Shown here: positions 1,150 to 64,000 of the stretch, piece by piece
Position numbering within the stretch: position 1 is the first letter of the stretch
Layout of the letters: the number at the start of each line of letters is the position of its first letter
Origin: an uncultured Candidatus Actinomarina sp.
GTDB lineage: Bacteria; Actinomycetota; Acidimicrobiia; Actinomarinales; Actinomarinaceae
DNA: 64,000 bases
Direction: 5' to 3'
Assembly: GCA_902609285.1 (NCBI GenBank)
Contig: CACLRL010000001.1
Location: 15,636 to 79,635, forward strand
Translations under genes and position numbers: made by a program
Notes under the pieces: model-generated
Told to the model about the DNA's origin: nothing
Databases searched by the model: none
What the model saw: only the letters and a program-made list of their open reading frames with translations

Positions 1150-1222
1150 TGGAGATGATGGGACTTGAACCCACGACCCCCTGCTTGCAAAGCAGGTGCT
1201 CTTCCAGCTGAGCTACATCCCC
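1150..1222 (-). tRNA. tRNA-Ala (anticodon UGC)
   Basis: The reverse complement reads GGGGATGTAGCTCAGCTGGAAGAGCACCTGCTTTGCAAGCAGGGGGTCGTGGGTTCAAGTCCCATCATCTCCA. The cloverleaf has a G3:U70 identity pair and anticodon loop TTTGCAA. CCA is not encoded. Confidence 0.9.
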
Positions 1223-1311: not shown

Positions 1312-1389
1312 GGGCCTATAGCTCAGCCTGGTTAGAGCGCATCCCTGATAAGGATGAGGTCGTTAGTTCAAATCTAACTAGGCCCACCA
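1312..1389 (+). tRNA. tRNA-Ile (anticodon GAU), CCA encoded
   Basis: GGGCCTATAGCTCAGCCTGGTTAGAGCGCATCCCTGATAAGGATGAGGTCGTTAGTTCAAATCTAACTAGGCCCACCA. The anticodon loop is CTGATAA and the acceptor stem GGGCCTA/TAGGCCC is perfect. Confidence 0.9.
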
Positions 1390-6611: not shown

Positions 6612-6721
6612 CCTTAATTATCATTCTATTAAATAAAAGGTAAGTAATAATTTAAAATATCAAAGAAATAAATAGAAAGTTTTAGTTCATTTTATGAGAT
6701 TTGATATAATAATGAAAGCAT

Positions 6722-6815
6722 AAAGAGAAGGTTAAGACCTCGGCAACCTGGATGACTATCCAAGGTGCCTAAAGATGTGGCAGAAATGCAACTAATTAGT
6801 CAAAGCCCTTCTCCA
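6722..6815 (+). promoter_or_regulatory. SAM riboswitch of the SAM-I clan (SAM-IV or SAM-I/IV-like), 5' leader of metY-metX
   Basis: P1 GAGAAGG (6725..6731) pairs with CCTTCTC (6807..6813). The core is CGGCAACC-[CTGGA TGACTA TCCAA]-GGTGCC. An extended -10 TGATATAAT lies at 6702..6710, and the location upstream of Met biosynthesis genes fits. Confidence 0.55.
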
Positions 6816-32799: not shown

Positions 32800-32945
32800 G
32801 TAAGATACTCCATTCCTTCTCTCGAGGATTGTTGTCTAAAAAGTAAGAAAGGCGACCTGACTTATCCGAAGAATCACAGTTGCGGGACAGTGCTAGATTT
32901 TCACTAGCTTCGCTTTTTTACTTTATTTGTTTTAAAAAGAGTAGC
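32800..32945 (-). promoter_or_regulatory. cobalamin riboswitch (short, possibly AdoCbl-variant class)
   Basis: The minus strand reads ...GCTAGTGAAAATCTAGCACTGTCCCGCAACTGTGA...AAGTCAGGTCGCC..., matching the GUGAAAAUC / CCCGCAACUGU core and a B12-box-like AGUCAGG..GCC. Downstream CCTTTCTT can pair with the SD GAGAAAGG. Confidence 0.7.
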
Positions 32946-57475: not shown

Positions 57476-58255
57476 ATGACAACAAAAGAAAATATTTACG
57501 AATCAGAATCGTTAATTGTCTCAGATGGTTGCTGTGTTCAGTACGGAGAAGCTCTTGCTATAGATGATGTAACTTTCTCAATTACAAAAGGTAAAAAAAT
57601 TGCAGTAGTTGGTCCAAATGGTGGCGGAAAATCCACCTTATTTAAAGCATTGGCCGGATTAATTCCACTGTCCAGCGGTTCATTAAAGATAGATGGTTTG
57701 GATCCACTTAAGGCAAAAGGAATGATTAGCTACATTCCACAAAAAGATTCTTTAAACTGGAATTTTCAACTTTCTGTAAAACAGGTTGTAGAGATGGGAC
57801 TGACAGATAAAAGTACTTTATTAAGTTTTAATCAGAAAAAAAATGTAGAGAAGATAAATGAATCACTTGATCAAGTTGGAATCCTTGATAAAAGTGAAGA
57901 AAATATAAACAACTTATCAGGAGGGCAACAACAGCGAGTTCTGTTAGCCAAAGCTTTGATACAAGATTCTAATATTTTGTTACTTGATGAAGCGTTCAGC
58001 GCTATTGATGTTGGAGCTCAAGAAGACATAATGAAAATAATCAATGGAAGTGATCTTAAAGAAAAAACGATATTAGTTGCTACACACGACATCAATAATC
58101 TAGAAGATAAATTTGATGAAGTTTTATGTTTAAATAGGCATTGTTGTGCTTTTGGAGACCCTTTGGAAGTTCTTACAGAAGAAGTGATAGAAGAAATGTA
58201 CGGCTCACACGAAAATATGTTTCTTGATCATAAACCAGGTAGTCACGGCTCTTAA
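57476..58255 (+). CDS. znuC: zinc ABC transporter ATP-binding protein
   Basis: Walker A GPNGGGKST, signature LSGGQQQRVLLAKAL and Walker B ILLLDEAFS. Confidence 0.85.
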   Translation: MTTKENIYESESLIVSDGCCVQYGEALAIDDVTFSITKGKKIAVVGPNGGGKSTLFKALAGLIPLSSGSLKIDGLDPLKAKGMISYIPQKDSLNWNFQLSVKQVVEMGLTDKSTLLSFNQKKNVEKINESLDQVGILDKSEENINNLSGGQQQRVLLAKALIQDSNILLLDEAFSAIDVGAQEDIMKIINGSDLKEKTILVATHDINNLEDKFDEVLCLNRHCCAFGDPLEVLTEEVIEEMYGSHENMFLDHKPGSHGS

Positions 58256-58256
58256 T

Positions 58257-59081
58257 ATGATATCTGAACTTTTAATAGATCCTTTCCAATATGATTTTAT
58301 GATAAGAGCACTTATCGCAGCAATTTTTTGTGGGGTTACGCTTTCAACACTAGGCACGTTTACAATTAACAGAAATATGGGTTTTATGGCTGATGCTATG
58401 GCTCACGCGACTCTTCCTATAATTGCAGTTGGTGTTTTCTTTGGGTTTAGTATTTCAGAATTAGGAGCACCAGCAGCTATTGTCGTCGCTATATTCCTTG
58501 GCTTTATAGTTAAAAATACAAAAATTGGAGAAGACACTTCAATTGGCATAATCTTTTCAACTTTTTTTGCTTTAGGTTTCATATTGATAAAGCTCCTTAA
58601 TGTAACAATCAACTTGGAAGACTTACTGTTTGGTCAAATCTTAGCTGTGAACAGAACTGATATCTTCATCATCACTGCTTTATTTTTAATAGTGATCGGG
58701 ATCATAATAATTTTCTTTAAACAACTTTTGTTTTATTCATTCGATCCCTTAGGAGCAGAGGTAAAAGGTTTAAATACCAACTTCCTCAATTATCTATTTT
58801 TGATAACCTTATCTTTGGCCGTTGTAAGCGCTCTTCAAACAGTAGGAATAATTTTAGTTTTGAGTATGTTGATAATTCCTGCTGCATCAGCAAAACTAAT
58901 TACGAATACATTCATAGACTCAATTAAAGTCAGCATAGCTTTTGGAATTATCTCATCTGTTGCTGGTTTAGTCATTTCATATCATCTTGATTTACCTACT
59001 GGCCCTTCTATGTCATTAGTGGCTTCAACAGTTTTTCTATTGTCATATATTTCAAGTAAACCAAAAATTAAAAAAAGATAA
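58257..59081 (+). CDS. znuB: zinc ABC transporter permease
   Basis: ABC-3 family 8-9 TM permease. The ATG at 58257 directly follows the znuC stop, whereas the ORF-track start at 58224 would overlap it. Confidence 0.85.
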   Translation: MISELLIDPFQYDFMIRALIAAIFCGVTLSTLGTFTINRNMGFMADAMAHATLPIIAVGVFFGFSISELGAPAAIVVAIFLGFIVKNTKIGEDTSIGIIFSTFFALGFILIKLLNVTINLEDLLFGQILAVNRTDIFIITALFLIVIGIIIIFFKQLLFYSFDPLGAEVKGLNTNFLNYLFLITLSLAVVSALQTVGIILVLSMLIIPAASAKLITNTFIDSIKVSIAFGIISSVAGLVISYHLDLPTGPSMSLVASTVFLLSYISSKPKIKKR

Positions 59082-59087
59082 GTTATT

Positions 59088-59570
59088 TTGGAAGAAAAGA
59101 CATTTTCAATATGGGTGAAGTCTTCTTCTGACGATGTAGTAGATATTAAAAATCAAATTGATTCTTTTGCTAAGGAAGAGAACAAAGTTTCATTTGATCC
59201 CCACGTCACTCTTGTTACAAAAATTAATTCACAAGAAAAAGCAAATGATATTCTAGATCAGATTAAAAAAGAGAAAATTACAGTGACCTTTGATAGAGTC
59301 TGCGAAGGCGTAAGCTACTTTCAAAGACTTTACTTAACAGCATCTGATAATATTCCATTCAACAATTTAGTAATAAATCTTGAAGGTTGGCCAAGTTTAT
59401 GGGTTCCCCACATTTCTCTTTATTATGGGAATGAGTTACCTAAATCTTATAATGCTACAAAATTTGATAATCTCATCCCCACAACTATTACATTCGATAC
59501 TTTAGAGCTTTATAAAACTGGCCCCACAGTATCTGAGTGGAAGGAGATAACCACTCTGTCTTTAGGCTGA
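59088..59570 (+). CDS. 2H phosphoesterase superfamily protein (cyclic phosphodiesterase / LigT-like)
   Basis: Two HxT/S motifs, PHVTLVT and PHISLYY, at the expected spacing. Confidence 0.65.
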   Translation: MEEKTFSIWVKSSSDDVVDIKNQIDSFAKEENKVSFDPHVTLVTKINSQEKANDILDQIKKEKITVTFDRVCEGVSYFQRLYLTASDNIPFNNLVINLEGWPSLWVPHISLYYGNELPKSYNATKFDNLIPTTITFDTLELYKTGPTVSEWKEITTLSLG

Positions 59571-61841: not shown

Positions 61842-63197
61842 CTATTTCTTAACTGACTCCAGAGCAACTTTCACTTTTTCAGCTGGGAATTCATAGTCAA
61901 TCATTTCACCACTTAAAAAGTTTTCGTATGCTTTCATATCAAAATGTCCATGGCCACACATAGCAGTTAATACAGCAATTTTTTTTGAATTTTGATCAGC
62001 ATCTTTGACTGCTCTTATCGCAGATGCAATTGCATGAGTTGCTTCCGGGGCTGGAACAATACCTTCAGTTTTAGCAAAAAGCTGACCAGCCTCAAAACAT
62101 TCTTTTTGACCAATTGCTTCTGCTTCTATTAGATTTTCTTCATACATTGCACTTACTAATGGGGCCATACCGTGATATCGCAATCCCCCAGCATGTATTG
62201 GGTCAGGTACAAAACTAGATCCAAGAGTATGCATTTTTACAACAGGTGCCATACCAACCGAATCACCAAAGTCGTATGTATACACACCTTTGGTTAACGA
62301 AGGACAAGCCTCTGGCTCCACCGCACGTATTATTGTCTTTTGATCTGTTTGCATATTATTTCTTAAGAATGGAGAAAACAAACCTGTAAAGTTTGATCCA
62401 CCTCCCGTACAACCAACAATAACATTGGGGTAATCTTCGGCCATTTCCATTTGTTTCAAAGCCTCAAGACCAATTATAGATTGATGCATGAGCACATGAT
62501 TTAAAACACTTCCAAGTGCATACCTCGTACCTTCTTCTTTTCTAGCAACTTCAATTGCTTCTGAAATAGCTATGCCTAAACTTCCAGGCGTATTCGGATC
62601 TTCTGATAAAAACTTTTTACCAATATCTGTTTTATCAGATGGACTTGGATAAACTTTTGCTCCGTAGATCTCCATCATTGTTTTCCTGTATGGTTTTGAT
62701 TCGTAAGATGCTGCTACTTGAAATACCTCAAGTTCAATACCAAACGCTTGGCAAGCAAATGATAAAGCAGATCCCCATTGGCCAGCTCCAGTCTCTGTAA
62801 CCATTTTTTTAATTCCCTCCTCGGCATTAAAAAAAGCTTGTGGAATGGCTGTGTTAGGTTTATGAGATCCTGATGGTGACCCACCCTCATACTTGTAATA
62901 TATTCTCGAGTTTGTACCTATAGCTTTTTCAAGTCTAAGAGCTCTATACATCGGCGAAGGCCTATAAAGTTTATAGAGTTCTAAAACAGGTTCTGGAATA
63001 TCAATATAATTTTGATCAGAAACCTCTTGAAGTATTAATCCCATTGGAAATAATGGGGCTAAATCCTCTGGACCAATTGGCTCCATTGTTTGAGGATTTA
63101 ACTGTGGTGGCAATGGATTTGGTAAATCCGGTACAATGTTATACCACTGCTTTGGTAAATCATCTTCATTTAGTAGATATTTATACTGTTCTTTCAT
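61842..63197 (-). CDS. trpB2: TrpB2-type (TrpB-like) tryptophan synthase beta-family PLP enzyme
   Basis: 451 aa with the N-terminal extension typical of TrpB2 (LPKQWYNIVPDLP). It has the PLP-lysine block GGSPSGSHKPNTA and the SD AAGGAG. Confidence 0.85.
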   Translation of the reverse strand: MKEQYKYLLNEDDLPKQWYNIVPDLPNPLPPQLNPQTMEPIGPEDLAPLFPMGLILQEVSDQNYIDIPEPVLELYKLYRPSPMYRALRLEKAIGTNSRIYYKYEGGSPSGSHKPNTAIPQAFFNAEEGIKKMVTETGAGQWGSALSFACQAFGIELEVFQVAASYESKPYRKTMMEIYGAKVYPSPSDKTDIGKKFLSEDPNTPGSLGIAISEAIEVARKEEGTRYALGSVLNHVLMHQSIIGLEALKQMEMAEDYPNVIVGCTGGGSNFTGLFSPFLRNNMQTDQKTIIRAVEPEACPSLTKGVYTYDFGDSVGMAPVVKMHTLGSSFVPDPIHAGGLRYHGMAPLVSAMYEENLIEAEAIGQKECFEAGQLFAKTEGIVPAPEATHAIASAIRAVKDADQNSKKIAVLTAMCGHGHFDMKAYENFLSGEMIDYEFPAEKVKVALESVKK

Positions 63198-63250
63198 TTT
63201 TGCTCCTTCTTTTGGGTTGAGCCCGGAGATTTAATTTCAGTGACAGTAAT

Positions 63251-63275
63251 AAAAAAACCGGGCTGTGCCCGGTTT
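63251..63275 (-). terminator. intrinsic terminator inside the trpB2 5' leader (attenuator)
   Basis: The minus strand reads AAACCGGG-CACAG-CCCGGTTT followed by further Ts (7 Ts in a row in total). It lies 53 nt upstream of the trpB2 ATG, and no upstream same-strand gene needs a terminator here. Confidence 0.7.
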
Positions 63276-63300
63276 AAGAACTAACTAATGGGGCAGCTAC

Positions 63301-63342
63301 CTATGTAGTTGTCCACCAATTCCAGCTAGTTATATTTTTCAT
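63301..63342 (-). CDS. Trp-rich leader peptide MKNITSWNWWTTT
   Basis: ATG AAA AAT ATA ACT AGC TGG AAT TGG TGG ACA ACT ACA TAG was read directly on the minus strand. It has 3 Trp codons in 13 and sits about 25 nt upstream of the terminator hairpin. Confidence 0.65.
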   Translation of the reverse strand: MKNITSWNWWTTT

Positions 63343-63420
63343 ATTTAATAATGTACCAAATAATCCAGATGTTGCAAAATTCATTTAAGTAAATTCTTTA
63401 TTTATTCTATTCTTTATTAA

Positions 63421-64000
63421 ATGGAAAAGATAATAGTTGCTAAAGATTTGACAAAAATTTATGGAGAAGAAGGAACCTCTGTTACAGCTTTAAATAATGT
63501 AAATCTTGATTTTTATGAGAATAAATTTACGGCAATCATGGGTCAATCTGGGTCAGGAAAATCTACCTTGCTTCATTGTCTTGCTGGTTTGGACAAAGTA
63601 ACTTCTGGGTCGATATTTATTAAAGGTACTGATCTAGGTAATCTTAACGATAAAGAGTTAACAAAAATGAGGAGAGATTCATTTGGTTTTGTTTTCCAGG
63701 CATTCAATTTAATTCCAACATTGACAGCTGAAGAAAATATAACACTCCCATCTTCAATTGCAGGCAAGAAACCAGATGAGGATTGGATTAATCAAATTGT
63801 CAATGCTGTAGATATTGGAGACAGATTAAATCATCGACCTAATGAGCTTTCAGGTGGACAACAACAAAGAGTTGCTGCAGCACGAGCAATGGCAACAAAG
63901 CCTGAAGTAATTTTTGCTGACGAACCATCTGGAAACTTAGATTCAAAATCTAGCAAAGAACTATTGACTTTTATGAAGTCAGTAGTAAATGAATTGAATC
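63421..64000 (+). CDS. ABC transporter ATP-binding protein (MacB/LolD class), 3'-truncated by window edge
   Basis: MEKIIVAKDLTKIYG..., Walker A GQSGSGKST, signature LSGGQQQRVAAARAM and Walker B IFADEPSGNLD. The frame is open to the window end. Confidence 0.85.
   Translation, partial: MEKIIVAKDLTKIYGEEGTSVTALNNVNLDFYENKFTAIMGQSGSGKSTLLHCLAGLDKVTSGSIFIKGTDLGNLNDKELTKMRRDSFGFVFQAFNLIPTLTAEENITLPSSIAGKKPDEDWINQIVNAVDIGDRLNHRPNELSGGQQQRVAAARAMATKPEVIFADEPSGNLDSKSSKELLTFMKSVVNELN

Follow-up and report, generated by a model that had tools for sequence, protein, structure and literature searches.

What controls trpB2, a stand-alone gene for a TrpB-like enzyme, in Candidatus Actinomarina? The copy considered here lies in a 64-kb stretch of DNA from an uncultured Candidatus Actinomarina sp. 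(contig CACLRL010000001.1; this whole stretch is called the window, and all coordinates are positions in it), where a leader (63377..63198) and trpB2 form a unit on the minus strand. The original prediction, made from the letters of this stretch, placed a classical tryptophan (Trp) leader-peptide attenuator in front of the gene. Conservation, constrained folds and covariation now support that prediction, and we consider it highly likely, from comparative sequence evidence, that a ribosome-mediated leader-peptide attenuator sensing charged tRNA-Trp gates the transcription of trpB2 and, in this genome, of a dikinase gene behind it. The leader has every feature of a leader-peptide Trp attenuator that can be looked for computationally. 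The mechanism itself is ordinary and known; what is new is the target gene and the host, and the physiology that they imply adds to the interest.

The leader ORF, its distribution and its promoter

The leader open reading frame (ORF) reads ATG AAA AAT ATA ACT AGC TGG AAT TGG TGG ACA ACT ACA TAG, exactly as first described, and three of its 13 codons specify Trp. Trp accounts for 0.8% of the residues encoded by the 52 long ORFs of the window, in agreement with the earlier remark that it is sparse in neighbouring ORFs, and the probability of finding three or more Trp in 13 codons is 1.4e-4; the string TGGNNNTGGTGG occurs once in the 64 kb, both strands counted (0.18 occurrences expected). A hairpin, AAACCGGGC-ACA-GCCCGGTTT (63275..63255), with a run of seven T at 63257..63251, stands 25 nucleotides (nt) past the leader ORF and ranks first among the terminator-like sites over the final 20 kb of the window. 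The T-run is separated by 53 nt from the trpB2 ATG (63197), which has an AAGGAG Shine-Dalgarno (SD) sequence at 63208..63203, and the upstream neighbour, a gene for an ABC ATPase that starts at 63421, is divergent. The original prediction had given the terminator, this spacing, the SD sequence and the divergent neighbour, and each was found again.

A scan for trpB2 in one genome per species yielded 77 loci, 26 of which are Actinomarina-type, with TrpB2 proteins that are 82-98% identical. The genomes of these 26 loci are labelled Candidatus Actinomarina (22), OCS155 cluster bacterium (three) and Polynucleobacter (one, L018); the remaining loci, with 46-64% identity over the best segment, belong to other Acidimicrobiia, Chloroflexota, Bacteroidota, Proteobacteria and Archaea. 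In every one of the 26 Actinomarina-type genome loci, trpB2 is preceded by a terminator and by an ORF of 13-14 codons with the arrangement W-x-W-W, or with one W lost. Altogether, the Trp-rich ORF and terminator are present at 35 loci besides the window, in at least four divergent leader lineages, and the leader precedes trpB2 in all 33 Actinomarina-type loci for which upstream DNA was recovered, except one that has a different leader with two adjacent Trp codons (WW). The leader was not found at the ~50 other trpB2 loci, apart from an independent attenuator with three adjacent Trp codons (WWW) in a Bacteroidales metagenome-assembled genome (MAG). At the Acidimicrobiia trpB2 loci of 62-67% identity, a search over 350 nt revealed no mini-ORF rich in W (Ns obscure L200), and among the trpB2 loci compared we saw no sign of the Actinomarina leader element beyond Actinomarina-type genomes.

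Further leaders (L198 and L202-205) were obtained by protein search followed by contig look-ups. Metagenomes searched for the 15-base motif CTACATANGTAG(N)TGCC yielded at least seven genuine leaders, the 113 others among the 120 matches listed being rejected as chance. A generic detector that requires a W-rich mini-ORF, a perfect GC-rich hairpin and T5, applied to both strands of the window and of 44 Actinomarina-type loci, recovered 33 of the 35 motif-bearing loci and reported no site other than leaders.

Two loci, L161 (2173-2264, minus strand) and L186 (90-250, plus strand), hold the leader as an orphan, with promoter, mini-ORF and terminator intact and with trpB2 and the dikinase gene deleted. 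In both, the leader adjoins the 3' end of a convergent CPDase-like gene, and a remnant of ~30 nt resembles the junction between the end of trpB2 and the start of the dikinase gene; in L161, the first of the leader Trp codons (W7) has already been lost. The locus labelled Polynucleobacter, L018 (CAYVBV010000187.1, 'uncultured Polynucleobacter sp.'), is a 2.7-kb contig of 35% GC with an Actinomarina-type trpB2 (85% identity) and a typical leader, and it was probably assigned to that MAG by mis-binning.

Across all orthologues the leader ORF keeps a length of 13-14 codons, and the window, like each of the 35 other leader-bearing loci, retains at least two in-frame Trp codons. The residues that follow the initial Met are variable (KNITS, INVIN, YKVTN, IHSNN, YKTNN, FKTNN or YKLNS), as are the peptides as a whole, which take the forms MKN[IV]TSWNWW[TSI]TT, M[IK]NVINWHWWTTT, MKNITNLNWWTST, MKNVTSFNWWTTT, MYKVTNWNWW[TI]LHM, MIHSNNW[SN]WWTLHM, MYKTNNWNWWKLH[MP], MFKTNNWNWWRLHM and MYKLNSWNWPDSHM. 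Nothing but the Trp codons and the Asn between them is constant, which is the pattern expected of a regulatory peptide and not of a functional one. We rejected a longer in-frame ORF of 27 amino acids (aa), MNFATSGLFGTLLNMKNITSWNWWTTT (63384..63301, minus strand), the ATG of which is unconserved in most orthologues and lies upstream of the conserved -10 element.

Upstream of the leader ORF, the arrangement TTGnnn-16-TAnnnT-7-ATG is present in 24 of the 26 distinct upstream sequences and in both major clades; the exceptions are L022, where the -35 element is TTTAAA, and L021, where a 1-nt offset leaves the -10 element ending 8 nt before the ATG. Taken alone, the -10 pattern TAnnnT holds for 25 of the 26 (L021 again being the one with the offset), the conforming sequences having T1, A2 and T6 invariant and the inner positions variable, and a third lineage, L198, has TATAGT-7-ATG. 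Of the promoter first proposed, the TTGCAA element stands; the proposed -10 hexamer CATTAT, which reads TCTTAA or CATTAA in orthologues, is replaced by the conserved TACATT 2 nt upstream of it. The 7 nt in front of the leader ATG contain no SD sequence, whereas trpB2 itself has AAGGAG or AGGAGG. Because the geometry from promoter to ATG is invariant, we predict that the leader ORF is translated from a leaderless mRNA, as had been suggested. In Corynebacterium diphtheriae, experiments have mapped a leaderless leader peptide, that of ilvB (PMC5784534).

Alternative pairings predicted for the leader RNA

The 92-nt leader folds with -33.4 kcal/mol (z = -4.5), and none of 200 shuffled sequences was equally stable. 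The main structural element of this fold, which had gone unnoticed in the original prediction, is a helix between nt 12-38 (codons 4-13; region 1) and nt 43-64 (region 2) that pairs the UGG codons with the strand from which the antiterminator is built: UGG7 pairs with UUA, UGGUGG with GCCCCA, and CUAC with GUAG at the apex. Folds of the individual sequences predict this 1:2 helix for each of the 21 distinct orthologues in alignment A1, and pairing of the apex hairpin (63308..63305 with 63300..63297) holds in 100% of cells. In L198 the apex hairpin is altered by two compensatory pairs (UCAC/GUGA), a change in which UAG becomes UGA and the stop function is kept. The motif CUACAUAnGUAGGUGCC is conserved as a nucleotide sequence, yet its frame differs between the two main clades and the stop codon shifts within it, always remaining at, or just before, region 2. 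That the motif is kept across these frame shifts, together with the combined change of apex and stop in L198, argues that RNA structure and ORF are both constrained.

The outer part of the 1:2 helix is made from differing sequences in each lineage (AACUAGCUGG with YUAGUUAGUU, AAUUAACUGGC with GUUAGUUAGUU, GUAACA/UGUUGU, UUCAAA/UUUGAA, CAAAUA/UAUUUG). Because its register differs by clade, we relied on per-sequence folds and on chimeras that combine region 1 of one leader with region 2 of another. Chimeras across clades were ~3-11 kcal/mol worse than cognate pairs (-18 to -23 kcal/mol), a result that discriminates between clades only, within-clade chimeras not always being worse than cognates. 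RNAalifold, run on a MAFFT alignment, recovered the inner hairpin and the terminator and nothing more. The terminator is paired in 97% of cells across orthologues. In clade 2 its U-run lies 4-6 nt from the trpB2 SD sequence, which leaves no room for a separate promoter and means that trpB2 could be expressed by read-through only; in the window, the minus strand has no promoter-like site between 63250 and 63198.

The pairing that would compete with the terminator joins (C)UGCCC (63296..63291), in region 2, with GGGCA(C) (63270..63265; region 3). The original idea that the segment after the stop codon pairs with the 5' arm and loop of the terminator therefore stands, in this conserved register and not in the bulged one of 4+3 pairs that had been drawn. 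We simulated stalling by masking nt 1 to A-site + 13, with the A site on UGG9 or UGG10 and with the transcript ended before the 3' arm of the terminator. With the ribosome placed in this way on the WW codons, the antiterminator forms in 19 of 19 distinct leaders, at -5 to -13 kcal/mol, and likewise in L198 (-7.5 kcal/mol).

Covariation provides further support for the antiterminator. In alignment A2 (22 sequences), where columns 47-52 were tested against columns 78-83, the 6-bp helix is paired in 98.5% of cells, and three of its six pairs are compensatory (GC/UA/CG, UA/GC and GC/AU; 12 cells). None of 500 shuffles reached the observed values, and sliding the partner by 1-3 columns lowered pairing to 28-47%. 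The states found in the different lineages are GUGCCC:GGGCAC, CUGCCC:GGGCAG, GUGCCC:GGGCGC, GUGUCU:GGGCAC, GGACCU:GGGUCC and UGAUCU:GGGUCA. The covarying 3' columns include bases of the terminator loop, which is hard to explain without antiterminator pairing. A previous count on 21 sequences was weak (one compensatory pair, with 25 of 500 shuffles) and became convincing only when L198 and L202-205 were added. The alignment of orthologous leaders, which had been proposed as a check, thus revealed both conserved Trp codons and covarying stems, and constrained folding, the other proposed check that could be made by computation, likewise favoured the attenuator.

These elements suggest the following course of events. 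Transcription would start at the leader ATG, or 1 nt before it, from TTGCAA-16-TACATT. When Trp is ample, the ribosome would reach UAG and its footprint would cover GUAGCUGCCC, the antiterminator strand, or, once the ribosome had departed, region 1 would re-pair with region 2, the UGG codons pairing to GCCCC; in either case GGGC would be left free, and the CCGGGC/GCCCGG hairpin with U7 would form and terminate transcription at about nt 92. When charged tRNA-Trp is scarce, the ribosome would halt with its A site on UGG9 or UGG10 and a footprint that ends at about nt 38-41, masking region 1 and freeing region 2, so that (C)UGCCC could capture GGGCA(C) as soon as it had been transcribed, the terminator would be prevented, and RNA polymerase (RNAP) would read into trpB2. 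The distances agree with this scheme if a footprint of 13 nt beyond the A site is taken: a ribosome stalled at UGG10 covers up to nt 40 and region 2 begins at nt 43, whereas one that has reached the stop codon (nt 40-42) extends to nt 52-53 and overlies UGCCC (nt 48-52). In clade 1, to which the window belongs, the stop codon is at nt 40-42 and the antiterminator strand at nt 47-52; in clade 2 they are at nt 43-45 and nt 46-51. Footprint arithmetic and masked folds hence agree with the original proposal that a ribosome at the stop codon masks the antiterminator strand and one stalled on UGG frees it. As the terminator (about -14 kcal/mol) is more stable than the antiterminator (about -7 to -13 kcal/mol), the choice between them would have to be kinetic, as in Escherichia coli.

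Several points weigh against this reading. In the window the antiterminator is weak, with 5 bp between UGCCC (63295..63291) and GGGCA (63270..63266) at -6.8 kcal/mol against about -14 kcal/mol for the terminator, and its outermost pair is a C x C mismatch; induction in this strain would have to be kinetic and could be modest. The outer 1:2 helix, with a register that differs between clades, is not scorable by column, and covariation was scored for the inner part. One of the antiterminator states, CUGCCC:GGGCAG, is confined to L161 and L186, where trpB2 is deleted and the leader may lack selection, and, more generally, the aligned sequences are kin, so that the shuffle controls overstate significance. 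Finally, coupling of ribosome and RNAP on a leaderless mRNA is assumed for Actinomarina.

Table 1 Features of the leader and trpB2 unit in the window
Feature	Position	Strand	Remarks
-35 element TTGCAA	63377..63372	-	TTG invariant in conforming sequences; 16 nt from -10
Extended -10, TGG + TACATT (TAnnnT)	63358..63350	-	hexamer 63355..63350; 7 nt before leader ATG
Leader ORF MKNITSWNWWTTT, then stop	63342..63301	-	13 codons; without SD sequence; predicted leaderless
Leader Trp codons	63324..63322, 63318..63316, 63315..63313	-	stop TAG 63303..63301
Region 1, 5' strand of 1:2 anti-antiterminator helix	63331..63305	-	codons 4-13, all three UGG; in minimum free energy and centroid folds
Region 2, 3' strand of 1:2 helix, GUAG-CUGCCCC-AUUAGUUAGUU	63300..63279	-	contains antiterminator 5' strand, 63296..63291
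Region 3 core GGGCAC	63270..63265	-	last four bases of terminator 5' arm and two loop bases; partner of region 2
Intrinsic terminator (3:4), AAACCGGGC-ACA-GCCCGGUUU + U7	63275..63251	-	9 pairs, 6 G-C
5' untranslated region after the terminator, with clade-1-specific insert of ~40 nt	63250..63198	-	insert 63247..63214
trpB2, TrpB-like pyridoxal phosphate (PLP) enzyme, 451 aa	63197..61842	-	PALP domain
RPH/PEP-synthase-like dikinase, 745-755 aa	61867..59600	-	C-terminal PEP-utilizers phospho-histidine domain, PF00391

Other explanations and known Trp attenuators

The leader ORF and the structures downstream of it might instead act mainly on translation by governing access to the trpB2 SD sequence, with a terminator that is minor or constitutive. 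In keeping with such a role, the insert of clade 1, which occurs once in the window and is missing from clade 2, contains CUCC (63228..63225), which is predicted to sequester GGAG of the SD sequence (63206..63203; probability of being unpaired ~0 in the free fold), as well as a second CCGGGC identical to the 5' arm of the terminator. In addition, the one Actinomarina-type locus with a different leader, L199 (ERZ27286483, k119_1074662, 60-210), where TrpB2 is 80% and the following dikinase 90% identical to those of the window, has an unrelated WW leader, MRPIQSSNWWPIGQI, at which no terminator was found; a pairing of the trpB2 SD region AAUUUGAGG with the leader codons CCUCAAAUU, which immediately precede WW on the 5' side, is predicted there. 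The insert is possibly a second, translational lock, and the leader of L199, a single contig, may apply the principle of the attenuator at the level of translation. However, clade 2, L198 and L202-205 have no insert, their terminator standing directly against the SD sequence, and a covarying antiterminator makes sense only for a terminator decision. A relay in clade 1, in which the freed 3' arm of the terminator would pair with the downstream CCGGGCU and so expose the SD sequence, was rejected as energetically disfavoured (-21.1 versus -23.5 kcal/mol, 2.4 worse). We regard it as unlikely that translational control is the main mechanism; it is best viewed as something that clade 1 may have in addition to attenuation, and not in its place.

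It is very improbable, in our judgement, that a TRAP-like protein, a T-box tRNA or a small ligand governs the terminator, with the UGG codons needed merely to pair with CCC. In the 1:2 helix these codons are indeed paired, with GCCCC, and the leader has five UAG triplets. TRAP, however, requires 9-11 (G/U)AG triplets at a spacing of 2-3 nt, and the triplets of the leader are irregular, with gaps of 1 nt and of more than 20 nt; for a T-box, a 92-nt leader is too short. A search of 62900..63600 with Rfam cmscan at E <= 10 returned a chance match to CRISPR-DR and none to RF00513 (Trp_leader), T-box or any riboswitch, and the scan of the whole window at gathering thresholds gave no match to the leader although it detected SAM-I/IV and AdoCbl riboswitches elsewhere. 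Translation of the ORF is also what its design speaks for: the ATG keeps a distance of 7 nt from the -10 element, the frame stays open for 13-14 codons and stops at region 2 even where it is shifted relative to the RNA motif, and unrelated leaders (L199 and L050) likewise contain in-frame WW or WWW. We give still less credence to the view that an independent small gene, for a micropeptide or a small RNA (sRNA), is made up of promoter, mini-ORF and terminator and that trpB2 is served by a promoter of its own, even though L161 and L186 keep the unit as an orphan where trpB2 has been deleted and trans-acting sRNAs derived from attenuators are known (rnTrpL; PMC6614838). Those two closely related orphans, one of them already without W7, are probably recent relics, and they aside the unit is found solely before trpB2 in every locus that carries it; the peptide is unconserved except for Trp, and neither the 4-6 nt between U-run and SD sequence in clade 2 nor the promoter-free interval between 63250 and 63198 in the window fits a separate trpB2 promoter.

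By its sequence, the Actinomarina leader is an analogue of known trp attenuators and not a homologue; the absence of Rfam matches excludes homology to Trp_leader, T-box or riboswitches. Its likeness to the enterobacterial trpL of E. coli (RF00513) extends to four segments with 1:2, 2:3 and 3:4 pairings, a leader peptide of 13 aa (14 aa in E. coli), tandem Trp followed by three codons and a stop (WWTTT-stop in Actinomarina, WWRTS-stop in E. coli), a GC-rich terminator followed by a U-run, and an antiterminator weaker than the terminator. The two differ in that the Actinomarina leader has no sequence or structure homology to trpL, is predicted to be leaderless instead of SD-led, contains three Trp codons in the arrangement W-x-W-W, and precedes a single stand-alone trpB2, in a host reported to have no other part of the pathway, in place of trpEDCBA.

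Closer in taxonomy are the trp and trpS attenuators of Corynebacterium and Streptomyces (Seliverstov et al. 2005, PMC1262725), which share with the Actinomarina leader the phylum, the mechanism, two to three UGG codons (e.g. MTNMNAHNWWWRA in C. diphtheriae) and GC-rich terminators with poly-U. Classical trp attenuators have thus been predicted in other Actinobacteria, two of them having been studied experimentally (PMC1262725). The gGCC-rGCy-GGCC triple of those attenuators is absent in the Actinomarina leader, which has no GGCC and uses the segments GUGCCC, GGGCAC and GCCCGG; furthermore, the Actinomarina genome, of the Acidimicrobiia and Actinomarinales, is low in GC (33%), and the target is of the TrpB2 type (COG1350, NF009057) and lies outside any trp operon. 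In C. diphtheriae, the gene named "trpB2A" seems to be an additional copy of trpB that lies with trpA in a trp operon (PMC1262725). Our literature searches found no attenuator described on a stand-alone gene of the TrpB2 type, nor any in Actinomarina, and the novelty first claimed holds to that extent; actinobacterial trp attenuators and leaderless leader peptides as such are already documented (PMC1262725, PMC5784534).

Analogous biology is known from the trpRBA operon of Chlamydia trachomatis (PMC7755916, PMC6504234), a Trp auxotroph that has kept the last step or steps of the pathway, converts exogenous indole to Trp and has Trp-responsive control that includes attenuation. The mechanism there is different, with canonical TrpB and TrpA, the repressors TrpR and YtgR, and a WWW motif in the YtgR precursor, whereas Actinomarina would use a compact cis-acting RNA attenuator on a lone TrpB2. 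Another TrpB2-type gene with a Trp leader was found in the Bacteroidales MAG (L050; JBKHBQ010000032.1, 3790-4000). Here, a Bacteroidetes-type promoter motif, TAnnTTTG, is followed by the ORF M(HNLM)NIATWWWRFQNGDAVCCHCVI, ending in a stop, and by a hairpin, AAAAAGAGGCATGTCG-TACA-GCGACATGCCTCTTTTTTT, which forms an 18-bp terminator directly before a monocistronic trpB2 and was missed by the simple terminator scan. The ORF, of 22-26 aa, contains ..NIATWWWRFQ.., a 1:2 helix lies over its UGG codons, and an antiterminator forms in the masked state. This single sequence is unrelated to the Actinomarina leader, has a longer ORF and differs in its 18-bp terminator.

The probably regulated genes and their setting

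The protein encoded by trpB2 is of the TrpB2 type, as had been predicted, with scores of 698 bits for NF009057 (cut-off 366) and 609 bits for TIGR01415 (cut-off 519); against the canonical trpB family TIGR00263 it scores 144 bits, below the cut-off of 392. In many genomes trpB2 is monocistronic, with convergent genes after it. The dikinase ORF overlaps or abuts the trpB2 stop codon in the window and at ten other genome loci (11 of 26), and it also follows trpB2 in the metagenome loci L154, L175 and L199, which brings the total to 14 of 34 Actinomarina-type trpB2 loci. Where present, it is probably co-transcribed with trpB2. The original prediction had spoken of a TrpB2-type gene paired with a kinase; an obligate pair is excluded by the absence of the dikinase at 15 of the 26 genome loci and at all non-Actinomarina trpB2 loci, and the dikinase is an accessory passenger, optional across genomes. 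It scores 483 bits against the NCBIfam model PRK05849 ("hypothetical protein"), just below the cut-off of 501, and its best matches in the Protein Data Bank are the Listeria rifampin phosphotransferase structures 5FBS and 5HV1, over the C-terminal domain only.

Tryptophan biosynthesis is reported to be absent throughout Actinomarina and the Actinomarinales (PMC7771536; bioRxiv 10.64898/2026.04.03.716425); the text of the preprint makes no mention of trpB, indole, an attenuator or a leader, and PMC7771536 mentions tryptophan once, in passing. Because the rest of the pathway is reported missing, the function placed under control is most likely the salvage of indole to tryptophan, so that a Trp-starvation switch on a lone TrpB2 would most likely mean regulated indole salvage, with a role for the enzyme in vivo that we infer from its regulation. 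The occurrence of a Trp switch before trpB2 in Actinomarina and in the Bacteroidales MAG indicates that it evolved independently at least twice, and this is strong regulatory evidence that TrpB2 enzymes make tryptophan in vivo.

A wider proposal, which we hold only tentatively and think on balance doubtful, is that Actinomarina is no strict auxotroph, living by TrpB2-dependent indole salvage under a leaderless attenuator, and that the dikinase, where present, could supply the preferred co-substrate. From published enzymology, TrpB2 depends on O-phosphoserine. The gene serC is reported to be absent in the genus Actinomarina, and a serine or O-phosphoserine link between dikinase and TrpB2 is speculation. 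If true, the proposal would provide regulatory evidence on the long-debated role of stand-alone TrpB2 in vivo and would point to a trade in indole in ocean surface waters. In implying that indole is salvaged, a regulated TrpB2 refines the picture of auxotrophy in a photoheterotroph that ranks among the most abundant in the sea. An analysis of marine trp genes argued that attenuation is superfluous for detached trp genes (PMC2395257); by contrast, a genome of ~1 Mb here appears to devote ~180 nt to attenuating one. Very compact, probably leaderless and with clear covariation, the attenuator also offers a convenient natural system in which to examine how ribosome and RNAP are coupled on leaderless mRNAs.

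On the plus strand, 57476..59570 encodes an ABC ATPase, an ABC-3 permease (Zn/Mn-type) and a CPDase/2'-5' RNA ligase-like protein, a block that is convergent with the trpB2 unit and syntenic in all Actinomarina loci examined; the other flank is formed by the divergent ABC ATPase gene and an 883-aa ORF. Elsewhere in the window, Rfam matches at gathering thresholds identify a SAM-I/IV riboswitch (6713..6805, plus strand), an AdoCbl riboswitch (32802..32938, minus strand) and two tRNA genes (1150..1222, minus strand, and 1312..1386, plus strand), the two riboswitches indicating that this streamlined genome retains several cis-regulatory RNAs.

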